From Minisyncoccota bacterium (GTDB lineage Bacteria > Patescibacteriota > Minisyncoccia > Phycocordibacterales > Phycocordibacteraceae), in contig DASWNF010000010.1 of assembly GCA_036399335.1 (NCBI GenBank), positions 4,066-68,065 on the forward strand: a stretch of 64,000 bases of DNA. The letters are read 5' to 3'. The position numbers were made by a program, and so were the translations under genes. The number at the start of each line of letters is the position of its first letter. The stretch's first letter is position 1. A model generated the notes under the pieces. That model was given only the letters and a program-made list of their open reading frames with translations, did no database searches and was not told the DNA's origin. Shown piece after piece: positions 26,031 to 37,434 of this stretch.

Positions 26031-27311
26031 ATGGCCACAAAGAAGCCTGTGAAAAAAGCTGCCCCCCAGAAGGCTGCCAAAAAGGCGCCGGTGAAAAAAG
26101 CCGCACCGAAGAAAGCCGTAAAGAAGGTGGCGAAGGCCGCACCGAAGAAAGCCGTAAAGAAGGTCGCTAAAGCTGCGCCCTCGAAGTCGGCGCGCACCAT
26201 GAACGTCGTACGTACGGCTGCAATGGGCGTCCGTGCGAAGAATGCCGCAGACCAGGCAGACAAGGCCGAGCGCCTCATCCAGAAAGGGAAGGAGCGCGGG
26301 TACATCACGTACAGCGAGATCCTCCGCGAGTTCCCGCATGTCGAAGACGACATCAACTTCCTCGATGACCTCTACGGGCGCTTCACGACGGCCGGCATCG
26401 ACATCCTCGAAGGCGGCATGCTCGAGGACCAGGCCGACCAGTACCTCGCGACCCGCAACATCAAGGGCCGTGAATCGTCAGGCTACGATTCCATCCAGAT
26501 CTACCTCCGCGAGATCGGCCAGTACCCGCTTTTGACCGCAAACGAGGAGAAGGAACTCGCCAAGCGCATCGAGTCAGGCGATGAGGAAGCCCGTAACATC
26601 CTCGCGCGCTCGAACCTCCGCCTCGTCGTATCCATCGCCAAGAAGTACGTAGGCCGCTCGCCGGACCTCACCCTCCTCGACCTCATCCAGGAAGGTAACC
26701 TCGGCCTCTTCAAAGCCGTCGATAAGTTCGACTGGAAGAAGGGTTATAAGTTCTCGACGTATGCGACGTGGTGGATCCGCCAGGCTATCACCCGCGCGCT
26801 TGCCGACCAGTCACGCACCATCCGCATCCCCGTGCACATGGTCGAGACCATCGCCAAGTACAAGCAGGTCTCGCGCCGCCTCGCGCAGGCGCTCGGCCGC
26901 GACCCGCAGCCCGAGGAGATTGCCGTCGAGATGAATGTCGAAGTCGAGAAGATCTACCAGATCGAGAAGATCAACCAGGACACCCTCTCGCTCGAGAACC
27001 CTATCGGTTCGGACGACGACGAGCGCTCGACCCTGGGCGATTTCATCGCCGACGACAAGATCCCAAGCCCCGTCCAGGAATCATCCGAACGCATCCTCAC
27101 CGAGCAGGTCCGCGACATCCTCGACGACCTCTCACCGAAGGAGCGCAAGATCCTCGAGATGCGCCACGGTCTCCTCGATGGCGTGTACCACACGCTCGAA
27201 GAGGTAGGGAAGGAGTTCGGCGTCACCCGCGAGCGTATCCGCCAGATCGAGGCAAAGGCCCTCGAGAAGATCCGGACGCACGAGAAGTCCCGTCGGCTGA
27301 AGAGCTACTAG
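26031..27311 (+). CDS. rpoD: RNA polymerase sigma-70 factor RpoD with a Lys/Ala-rich repetitive N-terminus
   Basis: Regions 1.2, 2, 3 and 4 are recognisable ([59 protein letters not shown]). The N-terminal 50 aa contains [17 protein letters not shown] repeats, encoded by a 36-nt tandem DNA repeat at about 26100-26164. Confidence 0.9.
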
Positions 27312-27340
27312 CAAAAAGGCCCCTAAGGGGCCTTTTTGCT
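27310..27340. terminator. Bidirectional rho-independent terminator after rpoD
   Basis: AAAAAGGCCCC-taa-GGGGCCTTTTTGCTTTT. Confidence 0.75.
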
Positions 27341-27442
27341 TTTAATCATAATAAAGACGCACTAAGTGTAGAAAGTATGTATGACTCGTTAATGCGCCAA
27401 AAGTATACTTGGCTGCAAGATTACCTATAGCTTGATATAGTT

Positions 27443-28276
27443 ATGCAAATGGCAACACCTGCAGAGGCGCGCAAAATTTTGCAGAAAGTAGCATATAAGC
27501 CTTATTTCCAGCAGGACCACTTTGTGCTCTATAACGGGGACTCTATTGATCTGTTAAATCAGCTACCTGAAGAGTCTATAGATATGATATTTGCGGATCC
27601 ACCCTATAATCTTTCTAATGGCGGGTTTAGCGTACAGGCTGGCAGGCGTGTCAGCGTAAATAAGGGCGACTGGGATAAGAGTAAGGGCTTACAGGATGAT
27701 TACGAGTTTCATTATCGTTGGATGGAAGCTGCGCGCAGAGTATTAAAACCCCATGGCACGTTATGGGTAAGCGGCACGTACCATTCTATTTATCAGTGCG
27801 GCTACGCATTACAGTCGCTCGACTTCCATATTCTTAACGACATCTCGTGGTTTAAGCCGAATGCTTCACCTAACTTAAGCGGTAGATACTTTACAGCGAG
27901 TCATGAGACTCTTATCTGGGCCCGTAAAGAGAAAAAGGCGAAGCACATATTCAACTACAAGCTTATGAAGGAGGGTCATTGGCCCGAAGACGCGCTAAAA
28001 AAACCAGGTCTACAGATGCGCTCCGTATGGTCGATGGGCACCCCTAAACCTTCCGAGAAAAAGCACGGAAAGCATCCAACACAGAAACCTTTAGATCTGT
28101 TGCAAAGAGTAGTTCTTGCAAGCACTAACAAAGGAGATATTGTGCTCGACCCATTTACCGGGAGCTCAACGACGGGACTTGCTGCCGCCTTACACGAGAG
28201 GAAGTTCATTGGTATTGATTTGGAGAAGGACTACTTAGAGCTTTCAAAAAAACGGTATCTCGATATCGCCCAATAA
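27443..28276 (+). CDS. Beta-class DNA methyltransferase (N6-adenine or N4-cytosine; N6_N4_Mtase family)
   Basis: Motif IV FADPPYNL near the N-terminus and motif I VLDPFTGSSTTGLAA near the C-terminus (the beta-class order IV...I). Confidence 0.85.
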   Translation: MQMATPAEARKILQKVAYKPYFQQDHFVLYNGDSIDLLNQLPEESIDMIFADPPYNLSNGGFSVQAGRRVSVNKGDWDKSKGLQDDYEFHYRWMEAARRVLKPHGTLWVSGTYHSIYQCGYALQSLDFHILNDISWFKPNASPNLSGRYFTASHETLIWARKEKKAKHIFNYKLMKEGHWPEDALKKPGLQMRSVWSMGTPKPSEKKHGKHPTQKPLDLLQRVVLASTNKGDIVLDPFTGSSTTGLAAALHERKFIGIDLEKDYLELSKKRYLDIAQ

Positions 28277-28278
28277 CC

Positions 28279-29160
28279 ATGAATCTAGAAAGCAGAGATC
28301 GTTATGCGTCGTCCGAGGACTTCCGGGATGACTTCATTGGGACCCTAACTCCAGGAATAATTCCTCGCGCCAACTTCATTCAATGGAAGACCATAGAAGA
28401 AAAGCGGAAAAAGTATGAACGGTACTTCGAGTTCTTTCGTGAACTACCACACTCTTCTGATACCGAACTAAGGAATCATTTAAGAGATTCTTTATTTGCG
28501 GATGACGATCCATTACCTCTAGTAACAGCTGCATTTCAGCTGCTCGGCCACACGGGAAAGACCTATGCCTCTGTAGAGGACTTCGTCGACTTTAAGAAGC
28601 TTGGGAAGGATGAAAAGACTGTGGAATCGATGGAATACGTTGCGAACCTGCTACTGGCCTTAGGAATTAAAAATGTCTTGGAGTGTAATTTAGATGACTA
28701 CTTTCTTGGCGTGCAGATCGGGCTTGAATCTCATCGGAGGAAGAATGTTGGGGGCACAGCCTTTGTAGCATCCGTACGTACTGAGTTGGAGAAGATAATT
28801 AAGAGTTTGAACTTCAAGGGCCAACCGTGGGAACTCAGCGAAGAAAAGAAAATTATATACATCGACGGAGTTACGTCTAAGAAGGTAGACTTTCTTCTGC
28901 AGAAGGATGGTAAAAAAATTGGTGTTGAGGTTAATTTCTATACGGCTCCTGGTTCCAAACCAACAGAAATTAAGAGAAGCTATGGTCAAGTTAATAGAGA
29001 CCTAGATGCCGTTGGCGCTTCCTTAATCTGGATAACCGATGGGGCAGGCTATTTAAGCATGAAGAATAGTCTAAAAGAAGCGCGTGATATTCACCAAAAT
29101 ATATATAACTTCCAAATGCTAAAGACATATTTAGAGCCCGATCTGGAACTACTGCCCTAG
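28279..29160 (+). CDS. Putative Type II restriction endonuclease (cognate partner of the upstream methyltransferase)
   Basis: Starts 2 nt after the MTase stop; 293 aa, low GC; possible PD-(D/E)xK-like segment IYIDGVTSKKVDFLL...IGVEVNF; no family assigned. Confidence 0.4.
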   Translation: MNLESRDRYASSEDFRDDFIGTLTPGIIPRANFIQWKTIEEKRKKYERYFEFFRELPHSSDTELRNHLRDSLFADDDPLPLVTAAFQLLGHTGKTYASVEDFVDFKKLGKDEKTVESMEYVANLLLALGIKNVLECNLDDYFLGVQIGLESHRRKNVGGTAFVASVRTELEKIIKSLNFKGQPWELSEEKKIIYIDGVTSKKVDFLLQKDGKKIGVEVNFYTAPGSKPTEIKRSYGQVNRDLDAVGASLIWITDGAGYLSMKNSLKEARDIHQNIYNFQMLKTYLEPDLELLP

Positions 29161-29241
29161 ATGAAATAAAGCTGCAGAAAATTGTGGGTGTGGGGAAGAG
29201 AAAAGGTTAGGAAAAGATGTGGTGCGGGATAGGGTAAGGGC

Positions 29242-29748
29242 ATGAATACGCTCATAATCCTTGCTGCTGTCCTCGTCGTTCTTTTCGTTATCGGCTTTGT
29301 TTTCAAGCTTCTTTCTGAGACGGAAGTTACGGGGATTACCGCTAAACCGAAATACAACTATACGAAGCGCCGGTATCTCATGACACGCGCTGAACACGAC
29401 TGCTATAAGCTCCTTGCCCGGGGGCTTGGCGACCAATACTTCGTATTTGCCCAGGTACATCTTCCGGAGATAGTGAGCGAGAAAGTCCCGGGGCAGAAAT
29501 GGCGGCCGGCACGGGCGCACATAGACCGGAAGTCGGTGGACTTCGTCATTTGCGATAAGGAAGGGATCTCGCCCTTGCTCGCTATTGAGCTCGATGACTG
29601 GAGCCATAACCGGGAGGACCGCCAGGAGCGGGATAGGGAGGTCGAGCGCATTCTCGCCCAGGCCGGGCTGCCGCTTTTGCGGATTACTGATATGGAAGAC
29701 CTTGTTAATCGTGTACAGGCTAAACTAGGCGCAAGCGAACATGCATAA
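29242..29748 (+). CDS. DUF2726-family protein (restriction-endonuclease-like fold) with an N-terminal TM anchor
   Basis: N-terminal TM helix; LMTRAEHDCYKLL...YFVFAQVHL...HIDRKSVDFVICDKEGISPLLAIELDDWSHN...RQERDREVERILAQAGLPLLRI matches the remembered DUF2726 consensus; GGGTAAGGG SD. Confidence 0.6.
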   Translation: MNTLIILAAVLVVLFVIGFVFKLLSETEVTGITAKPKYNYTKRRYLMTRAEHDCYKLLARGLGDQYFVFAQVHLPEIVSEKVPGQKWRPARAHIDRKSVDFVICDKEGISPLLAIELDDWSHNREDRQERDREVERILAQAGLPLLRITDMEDLVNRVQAKLGASEHA

Positions 29749-30586
29749 TCCAGATTACGACCCTTACCGGGATTTTATCGAAAAGCTGCAGAAAGATATG
29801 CAGCCTTATATCGAGGCACAGGCACGTTTACTTGAGGCATATGCGCCGACCTTCGAGGCGATGAACCATCTTCTTGTGCGCCTGGGACCGGTGCTGCAGA
29901 AGCAGATAATGCATGTGGAGTGGGTAGTGAGAGCGCAGCAGCGAAAGGAGGAGGAGAAGGTTGCGATGCTAGAGAGCGGCTGGTGGTACACCCCTTCCTT
30001 GCTCACTATTGATTTTAGGATTACCGACAACGCAGTTGACCAATATGGGCAGGGTGACAAGGAAGCTATCGGACGCATGGTCGAGACTGAGTATCAGCGT
30101 GATGGCTGTGCACTACTTGAACAAGCCGTGCTTGCTTGGGGAAAGAATGCCTTGTTTGCTCCATGGCTCCCTCATGCAAAGGCCGCCTTAGCGGCTCACC
30201 GGCGCAAAGAGTATGAGCTAAGCGTGCCAGTGTTCCTGATCATTTCCGAAGGGGTTGCCACGGCCTTTTGTAAGGCAAATGGTGTTTATGACGACCAGGA
30301 TATATCGAGTGCAGGAAAGAAGATAAAGAAGGCCTTGGACATTGGCTACGACTCCGGGCATGACTTGGCCTTTTCGGCGGAGTTCCTGAAGAGCGCCATG
30401 AATACTACGATTTATAAGAATACTGACGCACTCAAAGAAAGGCTAAATCACGACATTCTAAATCGCCACGCTGTGCTTCATGGTGTTAAGCCAGGCTACG
30501 GAACGCCTAGGTCTTCGCTTCAAGCGTTCATGCTCGCAGACTTCTTGAGCGAACTTGCGCAACCTCCAGAGAAAGATAGGAAATAG
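29741..30586 (+). CDS. Hypothetical protein with a C-terminal HEPN-like Rx4H motif (putative RNase effector)
   Basis: ATG overlaps the DUF2726 stop (ATGCATAA), indicating translational coupling; C-terminal LNRHAVLHG resembles the HEPN R-x4-H (Abi-type R[N]xxAH) motif; 281 aa. Confidence 0.4.
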   Translation: MHNPDYDPYRDFIEKLQKDMQPYIEAQARLLEAYAPTFEAMNHLLVRLGPVLQKQIMHVEWVVRAQQRKEEEKVAMLESGWWYTPSLLTIDFRITDNAVDQYGQGDKEAIGRMVETEYQRDGCALLEQAVLAWGKNALFAPWLPHAKAALAAHRRKEYELSVPVFLIISEGVATAFCKANGVYDDQDISSAGKKIKKALDIGYDSGHDLAFSAEFLKSAMNTTIYKNTDALKERLNHDILNRHAVLHGVKPGYGTPRSSLQAFMLADFLSELAQPPEKDRK

Positions 30587-30672
30587 AGGAAGATAAAATT
30601 TTCCTGCAGAAAATACTGCAAAATTAACGTAAATACCGTGAGCATTGACGTACGCATTGGTAACCTAAAAGT

Positions 30673-31653
30673 ATGTCATTAACTGTAAATGGTGCGTTCG
30701 CCACTTTCCATAAGGACTTTGTAAACCTGGATCCAGAGAGAACGAAGGTTGCCCGGGGCAGCAGAGACTGGTTATTTGATCAGTTGATAGGCCTACCACA
30801 AAAAGTAGACACATTCCCGCATTTGTATGCCGATAAGCATATCTATTATGGCTCGTTTGCGAGAAATACGAAGATACGCGAGCTCGATGATATAGACCTG
30901 ATTTTGGCTTTTCTTGCTCAAGGTACTAAATACCAAATTATTGTACCCGGCAAGGAATACGTGCTTACGCCGCCCGAGAGCGCGACGCATCTCCGAAAGC
31001 TTTGTCATGATGACGGTACCTTGAATTCAATAAAAGTAGTGAATCTGCTAGTCGCGTCCCTAGACAAGATTGAGCATTATAAGAAGTCAGAAAAGCATCG
31101 CAATCAAGAAGCAGCAACTCTCCAGCTTAGTTCGCATGAGTGGAAGTTCGATATAGTCCCTGCCTTCTTCGCTGATATAGACCACTACGTTATTCCTGAC
31201 GGGAAAGGGAACTGGAAGCCTACAGATCCACGAGTTGACCAAGAGAAGGTACAGCGGGTTAACGGGAAGCATGGAGGCAAGATCCTGCAGCTTATTCGGA
31301 CGTTAAAGTTTTGGAATAGGCGGGGACTTATGACTACTGCGCCCTCCTACCTATTTGAAAACATGATTCTTGATTACTTCGACAACCAAGCAGAGGTTCA
31401 CGATTATATTGACTTTAACTTGCGCGATTTTTGGGGTTACCTAATTACTGGCATTTACTACGATGTTATGGACCCGAAGAATTTGCAAGGCAACTTAAAT
31501 ACGCTGAGCCATTCAGAACGGGAAAGCATTTCTGCGAAGGCGGCAGATGCCTATGCTCGTGCAGCTGAGGCAATCAAGCTCGAGGTCACTGATGGCGACA
31601 TGGAAGCATCGATTCGGAAGTGGAGAGAGATCTTTGGGACGAACTTTATATGA
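30673..31653 (+). CDS. SMODS-type polymerase-beta superfamily nucleotidyltransferase (CD-NTase-like second-messenger synthase)
   Basis: YGSFARNTKIRELDDIDLILAF (GS...DxD) plus the third catalytic Asp in HEWKFDIVPAF (hxhDhhPa); 326 aa; low GC. Confidence 0.7.
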   Translation: MSLTVNGAFATFHKDFVNLDPERTKVARGSRDWLFDQLIGLPQKVDTFPHLYADKHIYYGSFARNTKIRELDDIDLILAFLAQGTKYQIIVPGKEYVLTPPESATHLRKLCHDDGTLNSIKVVNLLVASLDKIEHYKKSEKHRNQEAATLQLSSHEWKFDIVPAFFADIDHYVIPDGKGNWKPTDPRVDQEKVQRVNGKHGGKILQLIRTLKFWNRRGLMTTAPSYLFENMILDYFDNQAEVHDYIDFNLRDFWGYLITGIYYDVMDPKNLQGNLNTLSHSERESISAKAADAYARAAEAIKLEVTDGDMEASIRKWREIFGTNFI

Positions 31654-32546
31654 ACGACATACCTGAAAAGCAAAATCAGCCTAACCAGCTCGCCCTACTG
31701 TCAGCGCAAAGGCGCCTGTATTCGGCGTCAAAGAAACTTTTCTTCTGGCGGACAATCATTGCCTTATGTGTGGCAACGGTTGGCTCCTACCTCGTTTCGA
31801 ATATTACTTATTTCGGTTCATATCTCGCGTTAGCTATCGTAAGTTATATCGTTATAGATATTTATGTACTGAAACGGAAAGAATCTGAACACAGGGAAAC
31901 CGCTGCAGCAGTACAAGAACTTTTTGATACACGGCTCTATGAACTTCCATGGAATGATTTTGTGGCCAAGAAGAAACCAGATGACGAGCTGATTGCTCTC
32001 TGGGCCAGACCTCTTGAGCTCGATAACCAGGCGCTTAAGGATTGGTACCCACGTGAAGTCGGAAAAGCAGACTTGGATTTTGCCCGCTTTGTATGCCAAC
32101 GCACAAACTTATGGTGGGACTCCACGTTGAGACAGAATTACGTTCGATTCCTGATTTTTATACTAATTGCCACCGGAGTAGTCTTGGCATTATTGAGTAT
32201 CTATTTTGAGCTAAGTGTAGCAGCAGCGCTCGTCCAGCTTCTTCCATTGCTACCGCTCGCGAATTTGCTTCAGGAGCAAGTAAGGGACCACTGGGAGACT
32301 TACTCGCAGAACATATCCTTGAAAGGACAAATAGATGAGCAGATTGAAAAGATGGTACGCCGTGAAGTGTTAGAAACACCGTCAGTCGTGTCACGTATAT
32401 TTCAAGACGAGATATTTAGGCATCGGCGGAAATCCTCTCTTATTCTCGACTATTTCTACTGGAAATTCAGGCCGAAACAAGAGGAACAGATGCAGTTCAG
32501 TGCAGAATCGAAAGTCACAGAATACTTGAATGCAAAGCCGGCATAG
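31650..32546 (+). CDS. SLATT-like multi-TM effector (4 predicted TM helices) partnered with the SMODS nucleotidyltransferase
   Basis: ATGA overlap with the SMODS stop (31650-31653); TM pairs IIALCVATVGSYLVSNI/FGSYLALAIVSYIVIDIYVL and FLIFILIATGVVLALLSIYF/LVQLLPLLPLANLL; soluble C-terminal tail. Confidence 0.6.
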   Translation: MNDIPEKQNQPNQLALLSAQRRLYSASKKLFFWRTIIALCVATVGSYLVSNITYFGSYLALAIVSYIVIDIYVLKRKESEHRETAAAVQELFDTRLYELPWNDFVAKKKPDDELIALWARPLELDNQALKDWYPREVGKADLDFARFVCQRTNLWWDSTLRQNYVRFLIFILIATGVVLALLSIYFELSVAAALVQLLPLLPLANLLQEQVRDHWETYSQNISLKGQIDEQIEKMVRREVLETPSVVSRIFQDEIFRHRRKSSLILDYFYWKFRPKQEEQMQFSAESKVTEYLNAKPA

Positions 32547-34723: not shown

Positions 34724-34887
34724 CTTCGTCACTCCCATGCTGATGAACCGTTGTGAAAGGGCGGTTCGTGACCCGGGGAAAGTATAATACAATAGCGTCG
34801 ATATTGTCAAGGTCATGCGTGTATGTATATAAAGGCTGGATTTCTCCTTTTGGCCCGGGAAGGATATACTTTCCTCACAATTCGTTC

Positions 34888-37434
34888 ATGAAATGGTCCT
34901 CCAAAATTGGTGCCTTCCTCATCTCATTCTCCCTCCTTATTCCACCGGTTTTTGCTGATGAGCTTGTTCCTGCGTCGGGTACGAAAGAAGCGGCCGTTGA
35001 GATGGTACTTGGAACTTCATTCTCGGAATCGGAGCCAGCATTAGGCTTAGAAGAGCCGTTACTTCCAGCTCCCGAACCAACGCCAGAAGGGGAAGAGGGG
35101 GGTCGTGTACCGGCAGCCCCATCCACTGAGGCAACCGAACCTGCGGACGAAGCCGTAGCAAGTACGACGACCCCAATTGCTACCTCAACACCGAGCACGA
35201 CGCCTCTGCCACCAGAAACAGCGACCACGACCGAGGCAGAACCAGCGGAAGGACTCGGCTACGTGCCGGGAGAAATACTCGTTAAATTTAAGGAACAGAA
35301 GATCGACCTTGAGCGCGCGTCCGGGGAAGCAAAGGCCGAAGCCTTTACCGAAGCGCGGGGCCTAGGGTTCGAAGGCAGCCTCGTTGAAGCGAACGTCGCC
35401 ATTATCACGACTGAGGGAAATGTCGCTGCCGAGGTAGAGAAGCTCGAAGCCGACCCGAACGTCGAGTACGCGGAACCGAACTACACCTATACCCTCGACG
35501 AGTACGCATCGACCACGAATGACACGCTCTGGACGAGCCTTTGGGGACTCCAGAACACGGGCGCATCGGTGAACGGTACGGTGGGAACGAATGATGCGGA
35601 CATCGACGCGCCTGCGGCGTGGACCTTGTCGCAGGGAGAAGGGGTAATCGTCGCCGTCATTGATACGGGCGTTAACTACGCGCACCCGGACCTCGTCGGC
35701 CGTATGTGGAACGGGAACTCGTGCGTACTTGGCGGTATGGCCGTGCTCGGCGGCTGCGAGCACGGGTATGACTTCGTGCGCGATAACAGCGATCCGACGC
35801 CCGTTAACGACCACGGTACGCATGTCGCGGGCACGATTGCAGCAACGCTTAACAACGGGGCAGGTACGGCAGGCGTGGCACCGCGTGCCCAAATCATGGC
35901 GCTCCGCACCGATTATGAGGACGAAGAGGGTAATACTGTACTTTCGCTCGACGCCATTATCGCAGCCATGGATTTTGCGACCGAGAATGGCGCCAAAGTC
36001 GCAAACGCAAGCTTCGGCAGCAGTTACGAGTCGATACTCCTTCGTGACGCGATTGGCCGCTTCGGGGACGCGGGCGGCATCTTTATCGCTGCAGCGGGGA
36101 ATGCATCGGGCAATAACGACGTGTTCCGCTACTACCCGGCAAGCTACGACCTCCCGAATGTGGTGAGCGTCGCCGCAACGAACCAGGATGACGGGCTCGC
36201 ATCGTTCTCAAACTACGGCAACACGTCCGTCGACGTGGGTGCGCCGGGCGTAAATATCCGGAGTACGGTATTGAACGATACGTACGGCTTTAAAGGCGGT
36301 ACCTCGATGGCCGCACCGCACGTAGCGGGCATTGCCGCACAGCTCTTCGCCCTCAAGCCATCGCTCAGCGTCGCTGCGGCTAAGGCGGCCATACTTACGA
36401 ACGGTGACGCGGCACCTGCGCTCGCCGGCAAGACGGTAACCGGGAAGCGCGTGAACGCCTTCCGCACGCTCACCTCGGTTGCGGGAGGCCTTGCAACGAC
36501 GACGCTTAACGTTACGGTTTCCGTAGTCAACGATTCGGGGCGCACGGCGACCTCAAGCGACGTCGTGTACAGCATCAGTAGCACAATGGCCACGTCTTCC
36601 GTAAGCGGTATAAATGCACACCTTATTACCCCCGGCTTTTATACGGTTACCCCGGCAAGCATGCGCGGATACGTGCTCGCAAGCTCAGGCTGCACAAGCC
36701 TCATGCTCGTCGCGAATGCCTCGACGACATGCTCCCTTACCTACAATGACTTCGTCGACGTTACGGCGCCGACCATATCGCTCACGGGCGCAAACCCCCA
36801 GGCGCTCACGGTAGGGAGCGCCTATACGGAACTCGGCGCTACCGCTACTGACGACGTCGACGTAAGCGTGCCTGTCGTTATCGACGCGTCTTCGCTTGAT
36901 ATACAGACAGCGGGCTCGTACGAAGTCCGGTACGTTGCTACCGACGCGGCAGGGAACGCCGCAACATCAACGCGTACGGTTACCATGTCTGCACCGCCGC
37001 GCTCGGGCGGCGGGGGTGGAGGGGGAGGTGGCGGAGGGGGAGGTGGCGGAGGAGGAGGTTCAAGCCGCTCAAAGAATAAAAAGAAGACGACAAGGGAAAC
37101 AACGTCCGAACCCGCCAAGAAGGCGACTACGACGAAGAAGAGGGCAGCCGTGACGCCGCCAGCTCCGGCTGCGCCTAAGACACTGCCGGTGAAACAGGCA
37201 CCCGTTCCGGTGAAGTATGTATACGTGCGCGACCTGGCCGTGGGCTACCAAGGTGCGGACGTGGCGAAGCTTCAGGAGTTTCTGGTTGCAAAGGGCTTTC
37301 TTTTTGCGGCACCCACCGGTTACTTCGGCACCATGACGCAGGACGCGCTCCGCAGGTACCAGGCAGCAAACGGTATCTTGCCCGCAACGGGCTACTTCGG
37401 GCCGCTTACGCGCGCGCGGGTGAACGCCCTATAG
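34888..37434 (+). CDS. Secreted subtilisin-like serine protease (S8) with a poly-Gly tract and a C-terminal peptidoglycan-binding domain
   Basis: Signal peptide MKWSSKIGAFLISFSLLIPPVFA; catalytic triad motifs VIDTGVNYAHPDL / HGTHVAGTIAA / GTSMAAPHVAGIAA; a run of 18 Gly encoded at about 37003-37065; C-terminal LQEFLVAKGF...GYFGTMTQDALRRYQAANGI (PG_binding_1-like). Confidence 0.85.
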   Translation: MKWSSKIGAFLISFSLLIPPVFADELVPASGTKEAAVEMVLGTSFSESEPALGLEEPLLPAPEPTPEGEEGGRVPAAPSTEATEPADEAVASTTTPIATSTPSTTPLPPETATTTEAEPAEGLGYVPGEILVKFKEQKIDLERASGEAKAEAFTEARGLGFEGSLVEANVAIITTEGNVAAEVEKLEADPNVEYAEPNYTYTLDEYASTTNDTLWTSLWGLQNTGASVNGTVGTNDADIDAPAAWTLSQGEGVIVAVIDTGVNYAHPDLVGRMWNGNSCVLGGMAVLGGCEHGYDFVRDNSDPTPVNDHGTHVAGTIAATLNNGAGTAGVAPRAQIMALRTDYEDEEGNTVLSLDAIIAAMDFATENGAKVANASFGSSYESILLRDAIGRFGDAGGIFIAAAGNASGNNDVFRYYPASYDLPNVVSVAATNQDDGLASFSNYGNTSVDVGAPGVNIRSTVLNDTYGFKGGTSMAAPHVAGIAAQLFALKPSLSVAAAKAAILTNGDAAPALAGKTVTGKRVNAFRTLTSVAGGLATTTLNVTVSVVNDSGRTATSSDVVYSISSTMATSSVSGINAHLITPGFYTVTPASMRGYVLASSGCTSLMLVANASTTCSLTYNDFVDVTAPTISLTGANPQALTVGSAYTELGATATDDVDVSVPVVIDASSLDIQTAGSYEVRYVATDAAGNAATSTRTVTMSAPPRSGGGGGGGGGGGGGGGGGGSSRSKNKKKTTRETTSEPAKKATTTKKRAAVTPPAPAAPKTLPVKQAPVPVKYVYVRDLAVGYQGADVAKLQEFLVAKGFLFAAPTGYFGTMTQDALRRYQAANGILPATGYFGPLTRARVNAL

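Follow-up and report, generated by a model that had tools for sequence, protein, structure and literature searches.

Type I operons of the cyclic-oligonucleotide-based anti-phage signalling system (CBASS) mostly combine a clade D, E or F cyclase with an effector that carries two or four transmembrane (TM) helices, referred to as 2TM and 4TM effectors (bioRxiv 10.1101/2023.05.21.541620). One such operon, EcCdnD12-4TM, restricts phages from five families at least 10,000-fold in E. coli and is toxic when co-expressed with the scaffold domain of a phage prohead protease, a toxicity that is abolished by mutating two catalytic aspartates; 4TM and SLATT6 are separate effector classes in the same study (bioRxiv 10.1101/2023.05.21.541620). 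We report here on a two-gene locus of this kind in a 64,000-nucleotide stretch of contig DASWNF010000010.1 (assembly GCA_036399335.1), which is referred to below, at its full length, as the window. The host is a member of Candidatus Paceibacterota, within the candidate phyla radiation (CPR), and is represented by a metagenome-assembled genome (MAG). This agrees with the reduced-genome lineage that had been proposed, from the letters alone, by a first-pass annotation which read the pair as a SMODS nucleotidyltransferase with a SLATT-like membrane effector. It is highly probable that the two genes are a type I CBASS operon of the minimal kind, directed against phages, and that this bacterium obtained them by horizontal transfer as part of a small defence island.

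The layout of the locus is that of EcCdnD12-4TM-type operons, in which the gene for a cGAS/DncV-like nucleotidyltransferase (CD-NTase) is followed by one for a protein of about 300 residues with two TM hairpins, and Cap2/3 and HORMA/TRIP13 genes are absent. The window proteins also fall in the same Pfam and PADLOC families as type I 4TM systems and share with them a mobile, island or plasmid location. They differ in that the window sequences are distant, the host is a CPR bacterium and not a free-living proteobacterium or firmicute, and the two genes overlap by 4 nt. A cyclase and 4TM pair from B. cereus VD146 is reportedly an example of type I CBASS given by Millman et al. in 2020. The genes that neighbour the window pair encode a methyltransferase (MTase), a DpnII restriction endonuclease (REase), a DUF2726 protein, a 281-residue protein and an S49 peptidase, and none of them matched a CBASS accessory model (type II Cap2/Cap3, type III HORMA/TRIP13, type IV Cap9-12 or others) in Pfam, PADLOC or NCBIfam. 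The absence of Cap2/Cap3 and HORMA/TRIP13 genes nearby is what assigns the operon to the type I (minimal) class. Both genes are already recognised by PADLOC models and by the NCBI annotation pipeline, and the locus represents a known kind of system. The earlier wording 'CBASS-like' is therefore right about CBASS and too cautious in its suffix, because this is a canonical type I CBASS detected by standard tools, with an effector that NCBI has already named. In the same way, the statement that such systems are little characterised is only partly true, given that a CD-NTase and 4TM operon has been tested in E. coli (bioRxiv 10.1101/2023.05.21.541620) and that CPR defensomes have been surveyed (PMC12259885).

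Both open reading frames (ORFs) named in the first-pass annotation are present where it placed them, on the + strand (Table 1), and the first encodes a CD-NTase with an intact GS...DxD...D active site. Its best PADLOC match is to the cyclase model PDLC00802 (E 4.7e-125), which it covers at full length (residues 1-325 on profile positions 1-328 of 332), and 27 other PADLOC cyclase models match it more weakly. The SMODS identity suggested earlier is borne out by Pfam PF18144 (E 4.4e-13, 50.2 bits against a cutoff of 26.5). Judged as sequence matches to curated models, the PADLOC scores of the two proteins (about 1e-125 and 1e-77) are far beyond chance. The catalytic residues lie in YGSFARNTKIRELDDIDL (residues 59-76) and in KFDIVPA (residues 158-164). 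In an alignment of 30 cyclase homologues (54-65% identity) G60, S61, D72, D73, D75 and D160 are invariant, as are I161, V162 and P163 directly after the third aspartate, and the full pol-beta nucleotidyltransferase (NTase) signature that had been read from the translation holds in these homologues. The title of PDB entry 6p8j, a PaCdnD structure, names the inactive mutant D62N/D64N.

Structural comparison leads to the same enzymes. An AlphaFold2 (AF2) model built on the 30-sequence alignment (predicted local distance difference test, pLDDT, 88.3; predicted TM-score, pTM, 0.86) was compared with the PDB using Foldseek. The top match was PaCdnD (6p82; E 1e-18, TM-score 0.70-0.78), followed by E. 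coli CdnC, B. fragilis CdnB, the CdnD enzymes of E. cloacae and Salmonella, DncV, cGAS and MiD51. A profile of the cyclase family searched against PDB sequences gave only CD-NTases among its 10 matches, with E-values of 3.6e-24 for PaCdnD, 2.8e-10 for EcCdnC, 2e-7 for another CD-NTase and 1.5e-5 for E. cloacae CdnD; the single sequence reached a best E of 1e-10 (PaCdnD/EcCdnC group). Neither a CCA-adding nor an antibiotic NTase occurs among these 10 sequence matches or the 50 fold matches listed. The grouping with housekeeping NTases that the first-pass annotation had raised as a counter-possibility was thus not seen, the closest folds being PaCdnD, EcCdnC and BfCdnB. Going by these PDB neighbours, the cyclase may lie in the neighbourhood of CD-NTase clades C and D. 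We also considered Pycsar and rejected it on the fold of the synthase, which is that of a pol-beta CD-NTase and not of a class III cyclase.

The best solved matches, by both sequence and fold, are PaCdnD from P. aeruginosa ATCC27853 (6p82, 6p8j and 6p8u) and CdnC from E. coli MS115-1 (6p80). They share the GS/DxD/D active site with the window cyclase, at an identity of only about 17-21%. PaCdnD and EcCdnC belong to type III CBASS, where they are regulated by HORMA/TRIP13 and paired with the nuclease NucC. The window locus is unlike these systems in having no HORMA, TRIP13 or NucC genes.

The second gene encodes a member of the S_4TM family. Residues 2-287 match Pfam PF18159 ('SMODS-associating 4TM effector domain') over profile positions 1-290 of 291 (E 5e-71, 239.9 bits, above the gathering cutoff), the PADLOC effector model 4TM PDLC00721 matches over the full length (E 4.2e-77), and NCBI names an identical protein 'S-4TM family putative pore-forming effector'. 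These matches overturn the earlier view that the protein has no recognisable domain beyond its TM helices. They also make the label 'SLATT-like' imprecise: in the Pfam scan no SLATT family matched the effector at E <= 0.1, and the only match other than S_4TM at that threshold was a sub-threshold one to DUF4973. SLATT effectors (SLATT_1-6, for example that of EcCdnF04-SLATT6) are likewise small multi-TM proteins, encoded beside SMODS cyclases, for which membrane permeabilisation has been proposed, but the window effector differs from them in belonging to S_4TM. Cap15 and OptE (S-2TM-beta proteins of CBASS and Panoptes, respectively) are also membrane effectors run by the cyclic nucleotides of an adjacent synthase (PMC12657218). 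Their two TM helices and beta-barrel ligand domain set them apart from the window effector, which is all-helical and has four TM helices. We also considered membership of Panoptes itself (OptS/OptE, in which an mCpol synthase accompanies an S-2TM-beta or CARF/SAVED-TM effector) and rejected it, as the window pair has a SMODS synthase and an all-helical S_4TM effector.

The two pairs of TM helices seen in the first-pass annotation are supported both by Kyte-Doolittle hydropathy, which gives two hairpins (Table 1), and by an all-helical AF2 model (pLDDT 90.3) whose four helices, each 41-47 residues long, span residues 11-51, 55-97, 142-185 and 190-236. Lysine and arginine are absent from both outer loops and number 5 in the N-terminus, 14 in the central domain and 15 in the C-terminus. 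By the positive-inside rule, this places all of the conserved soluble segments in the cytoplasm: an N-terminal LLxAQRRLYSxAK, the 88-residue domain between TM2 and TM3 with QELFD, WYP and CQRxNxWW, and a C-terminal FQDEIFRHR. Taken together, they are likely to form the nucleotide sensor. A sequence search of the effector against the PDB found no relative.

The genes themselves are tightly joined. The ATG of the effector (31650-31652) and the TGA of the cyclase (31651-31653) share four nucleotides, so the ATGA overlap reported earlier is real, and its arrangement suggests that translation of the effector is coupled to that of the cyclase. A longer version of the effector ORF, starting with GTG at 31620, is also listed. 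Of the two starts we prefer the ATG at 31650, since position 1 of the S_4TM profile aligns with residue 2 of the protein and the closest homologue likewise starts MNDIP. In the closest relatives a 1-nt gap separates the two genes in place of the overlap.

Cyclases of this clade keep a 4TM partner across phyla as well as on mobile elements. Searching one genome per species, we found a relative of the cyclase in 282 species-representative genomes, and the counts that follow refer to the best 80 loci of that set. They come from Bacteroidota, Bacillota, Cyanobacteria, Proteobacteria and other phyla, and include one Parcubacteria MAG (L003) at 63% identity. An S_4TM relative adjoins the cyclase in 57 of the 80 by tblastn, nearly always directly downstream, and Pfam recognises an S_4TM partner in one further locus. 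Most of the remaining loci have a TM protein of 247-272 residues downstream of the cyclase which is missed by Pfam, and in a single locus an AbiC/AbiP-like TM protein stands in place of the 4TM protein. This survey of partners indicates that the cyclase clade is almost exclusively paired with 4TM effectors. Identity across relatives is 44-65% for the cyclase and 20-42% for the effector, which evolves much faster than its partner. None of the other four genes of the window's island was found at the expected position in the 80 loci; in three there are distant MTase matches (24-26%) about 4 kb away. Since the other island genes do not recur, the functional module is the cyclase and effector alone. 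The 281-residue ORF was rejected as a CBASS accessory on the same grounds, being absent from all 80 related loci and having its own homologues in unrelated contexts.

The shorter TM proteins deserve separate mention. About one quarter of the related cyclase loci carry this shorter 4TM subfamily, which the Pfam S_4TM model does not match at E <= 0.01. The five downstream ORFs examined, in L007 (6993-7766), L015, L018, L021 and L047, lie directly downstream of the cyclase and all match the PADLOC 4TM models PDLC00726/00719, with E down to 1e-102. The subfamily is a gap in the Pfam coverage of CBASS 4TM effectors.

In the closest relatives (P0004 and P0014) the same pair lies beside serine recombinases and other defence-type genes. 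Plasmid records with a relative of the cyclase number 954, of which 615 are from Escherichia and 700 are predicted to be conjugative. The E. coli IncF plasmid pF16EC0593-1 (L101, CP088380.1 35537-37468), for instance, carries a homologous pair beside ccdAB and repE, annotated as an adjacent 'nucleotidyltransferase' and 'S-4TM family putative pore-forming effector', which are 39% and 24% identical to the window cyclase and effector, respectively. CBASS of this type appears to be common on enterobacterial plasmids, mostly ones predicted to be conjugative. A phage origin was considered and set aside, as relatives turned up in no more than 11 IMG/VR contigs and a single GenBank phage record, and this scarcity indicates that the cyclase family is mainly chromosomal or plasmid-borne.

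Horizontal acquisition is indicated by base composition. GC content is 0.44-0.51 over about 27.4-32.5 kb and about 0.60 elsewhere in the window, and GC at third codon positions (GC3) is 0.45-0.62 in the six island genes compared with 0.83 in rpoD and 0.76 in the S49 peptidase gene, which substantiates the low-GC island noted in the first reading. The CBASS pair itself has a GC3 of 0.48-0.50 as against 0.76-0.83 in the flanking genes, and it is this difference that argues for acquisition of the island from elsewhere. Upstream of it are rpoB, rpoC, dnaG and rpoD, and downstream are the genes for the S49 peptidase and a UvrD-like helicase. We found neither an integrase nor a flanking direct repeat at the island, the repeats there being short and at chance level; an 11-nt motif, CTGCAGAAAAT, is common to two island intergenic regions and does not extend on alignment. 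A metagenome scan with the S49 protein for an empty-site relative, in which rpoD would be followed directly by the peptidase, turned up a single 2.2-kb locus, whose differing context made it uninformative. The sharp fall in GC at both edges, in a MAG, could also be produced if a low-GC segment of another organism had been mis-joined to a Paceibacterota contig during assembly or binning. We regard this as exceedingly unlikely, because a 51.6-kb JGI metagenome contig matches window positions 20673-41653 at 100% identity, both island junctions included, and a Logan contig reproduces positions 30489-32073, with the proviso that these assemblies may share the same or related samples. Moreover, the left edge lies just after the rpoD terminator (27310-27340) and the right edge stops 16 nt short of the S49 start codon, positions that would be expected of an insertion and not of a random join.

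No observation contradicts the assignment to CBASS, but several limit how firmly the mechanism can be drawn. The cyclase matched the NCBIfam CBASS cyclase equivalog models below their cutoff (108 against 200 bits), which places it outside the subfamilies used to train them, and it shares only about 21% identity with the nearest enzyme of solved structure. The effector is no more than 42% identical to any other protein found, and a search of its AF2 model against PDB folds returned nothing at E <= 0.001, the weak matches being generic ABC-exporter helices with TM-scores below 0.3; since the S_4TM fold has no solved relative, ideas on where it binds a ligand and how it might oligomerise or form a pore are conjecture. 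Upstream of the cyclase, no + strand site was returned by a sigma-70 consensus scan, with the caveat that CPR promoters may not fit the consensus, and in the consensus scan for promoters and terminators the number of sites was not above that in shuffled sequence. Finally, killing by membrane-acting CBASS effectors at native expression levels is itself a matter of debate (PMC13160051).

The cassette could also be a passenger or relic, acquired horizontally and either unexpressed or non-functional in its CPR host. Its foreign composition (GC3 of about 0.5 against about 0.8), the missing promoter and the weak Shine-Dalgarno-like sequences would fit such a history, as would the small number of defence systems per genome in small CPR genomes (PMC12259885). 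We nevertheless think it very unlikely, since both ORFs are full length relative to the models and free of frameshifts, all family-invariant residues are kept in both proteins, the start/stop coupling is preserved, and streamlined genomes purge dead DNA quickly; defence density per Mb is, furthermore, high in CPR bacteria and in Paceibacteria especially (PMC12259885).

The mechanism we propose for the pair follows that of CBASS in general. The cyclase would be held inactive until phage infection and would then condense nucleoside triphosphates into a cyclic oligonucleotide, which would bind the cytoplasmic parts of the 4TM effector. On ligand binding, the four long helices would oligomerise or change their arrangement and so permeabilise the membrane, and the infected cell would be killed or arrested, stopping phage replication. 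By analogy with characterised systems, then, we infer an infection-activated cyclase and a nucleotide-activated effector that would compromise the membrane. Pore formation or membrane disruption on nucleotide binding is a prediction even for the S_4TM family as a whole. The products of PaCdnD, EcCdnC and E. cloacae CdnD are cyclic trinucleotides and, as these are the closest characterised enzymes, a cyclic trinucleotide is the best guess for the signal, which we offer with low confidence.

The sign of regulation in this scheme is not fixed by the sequence. In a Panoptes-like guard the nucleotide would be made constitutively and hold the 4TM effector closed, and depletion by a phage sponge or nuclease (Acb1/Acb2/Tad-like) would free it. 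CBASS-like operons of a synthase and a TM effector can use such logic, as OptE is a Cap15 homologue with the opposite signalling polarity (PMC12657218). In addition, no accessory regulator is known for type I CD-NTases, and some of them, such as EcCdnE01, are constitutively active in vitro (bioRxiv 10.1101/2023.05.21.541620). Panoptes synthases are, however, mCpol domains and not SMODS/CD-NTases (PMC12657218), a later preprint reporting minimal diadenylate cyclases, whereas the window synthase is unambiguously a CD-NTase. In the one CdnD-4TM operon tested, which may be distant from the window operon, toxicity also needs the catalytic aspartates, the opposite of what a guard predicts. For these reasons we hold a guard to be highly improbable and prefer activation of the effector by its nucleotide.

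A further departure from classical abortive infection would concern the host. The window pair, that of the Parcubacteria MAG and metagenomic relatives, whose cyclases are 61-65% identical, could make up a CPR-associated sub-lineage of CBASS with a very divergent S-4TM effector that acts in another way inside ultra-small episymbiotic cells. Such a difference could lie in inverse (guard-type) signalling or in a phage or stress response tied to the host-symbiont interface. We consider such a sub-lineage distinctly unlikely, and retain the type I reading set out above.

This locus is a further record of immunity by cyclic oligonucleotides in the streamlined genome of a CPR (Paceibacterota) bacterium, here lying beside a type II restriction-modification (R-M) system on a compact acquired island of about 5 kb between rpoD and a housekeeping peptidase. 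Surveys of CPR defensomes describe dense defence despite tiny genomes, with Paceibacteria the highest per Mb (PMC12259885), and the combination of CBASS and R-M in the window fits them. In practical terms the pair offers a divergent S-4TM sequence whose structure is predicted with confidence (pLDDT 90), in a class whose ligand site and mechanism are without a solved structure; the AF2 model could serve as a first structural hypothesis of nucleotide sensing by S-4TM effectors. The class is abundant, with hundreds of E. coli plasmids carrying a relative of the partner cyclase. The pair may also be a possible test case for abortive infection in obligate episymbionts.

Table 1. Positions of the CBASS pair, its catalytic and membrane elements and the surrounding island in the window.
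Feature	Position	Strand	Evidence or remark
CD-NTase (SMODS-domain CBASS oligonucleotide cyclase), 326 aa	30673..31653	+	PADLOC, Pfam, AF2, Foldseek
G60-S61 codons, pol-beta NTase GS motif	30850..30855	+	Invariant; aligns to PaCdnD GS
D73-I74-D75 codons, first two catalytic acidic residues (DxD)	30889..30897	+	Invariant; aligns to PaCdnD 'DID'
D160 codon, third catalytic Asp (KFDIVPA)	31150..31152	+	Invariant; aligns to PaCdnD 'vDaVPAF'
ATGA start/stop overlap of cyclase and effector	31650..31653	+	Read from sequence
S_4TM effector (CBASS '4TM' membrane effector), 298 aa	31650..32546	+	Pfam PF18159, PADLOC PDLC00721
First TM hairpin: TM1 ~31-49, TM2 ~55-75, 5-residue outer loop	31740..31874	+	Hydropathy, K/R counts
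Second TM hairpin: TM3 ~164-184, TM4 ~189-207, 4-residue outer loop	32139..32270	+	Hydropathy, K/R counts
Intergenic region 5' of cyclase, 86 nt, presumed promoter region	30587..30672	+	Sigma-70 consensus scan
Low-GC defence island carrying the pair, 5.2 kb (context, not CBASS module)	27341..32546	+	GC, GC3, Pfam, PADLOC
N6/N4 MTase	27443-28276	+	Pfam N6_N4_Mtase E 2e-59; PADLOC MTase_II E 1e-98
DpnII-type REase	28279-29160	+	Pfam DpnII E 1e-39; 2 nt after MTase
DUF2726 protein, N-terminal TM helix, weak REase_MTES_1575 match	29242-29748	+	
281-aa protein, without Pfam, PADLOC or NCBIfam match	29741-30586	+	Overlaps DUF2726 gene

The island opens with a complete type II R-M pair (27443-29160, +), and R-M and CBASS were acquired side by side. 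Between them lie the DUF2726 gene and that of the 281-residue protein, which may constitute an undescribed defence or regulatory module, one unlinked to CBASS. The family of the latter, so far uncharacterised, comprises 724 representative clusters at E <= 1e-3, and its C-terminal domain of about 200 residues is fused to a MarR-type winged helix-turn-helix or a MerR/HTH_17 domain in five of ten longer members scanned. Of two homologue contexts, one has housekeeping genes around it, and in the other its neighbours are a DUF2779 protein and a helicase that carries an MTES_1575 nuclease domain.

Across the whole 64-kb window, a gene-dense segment of a CPR genome, there are no tRNA or tmRNA genes, and an Rfam scan gave no family at gathering score. 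Directly 3' of the rpoD stop codon, two perfectly complementary 15-nt arms, separated by a single nucleotide and followed by a run of T, form a typical intrinsic terminator (27310-27340). It is missing from the output of the consensus terminator scan, for which its loop is presumably too short. The N-terminus of RpoD (26031-26200, +) is a Lys/Ala/Pro-rich, histone-H1-like repeat, in which a 17-letter unit occurs twice ahead of the Sigma70 regions. Downstream of the island, an ORF at 34753-37434 (+) is listed at 893 residues and called by JGI in a 723-residue version, in a record without a Pfam match. Its translation contains the subtilase-like D/H/S motifs DTGV, HGTHVAG and GTSMAAPHVAG, as well as 18 uninterrupted glycines followed by a Lys/Thr-rich segment, and its C-terminal region resembles a peptidoglycan-binding domain.

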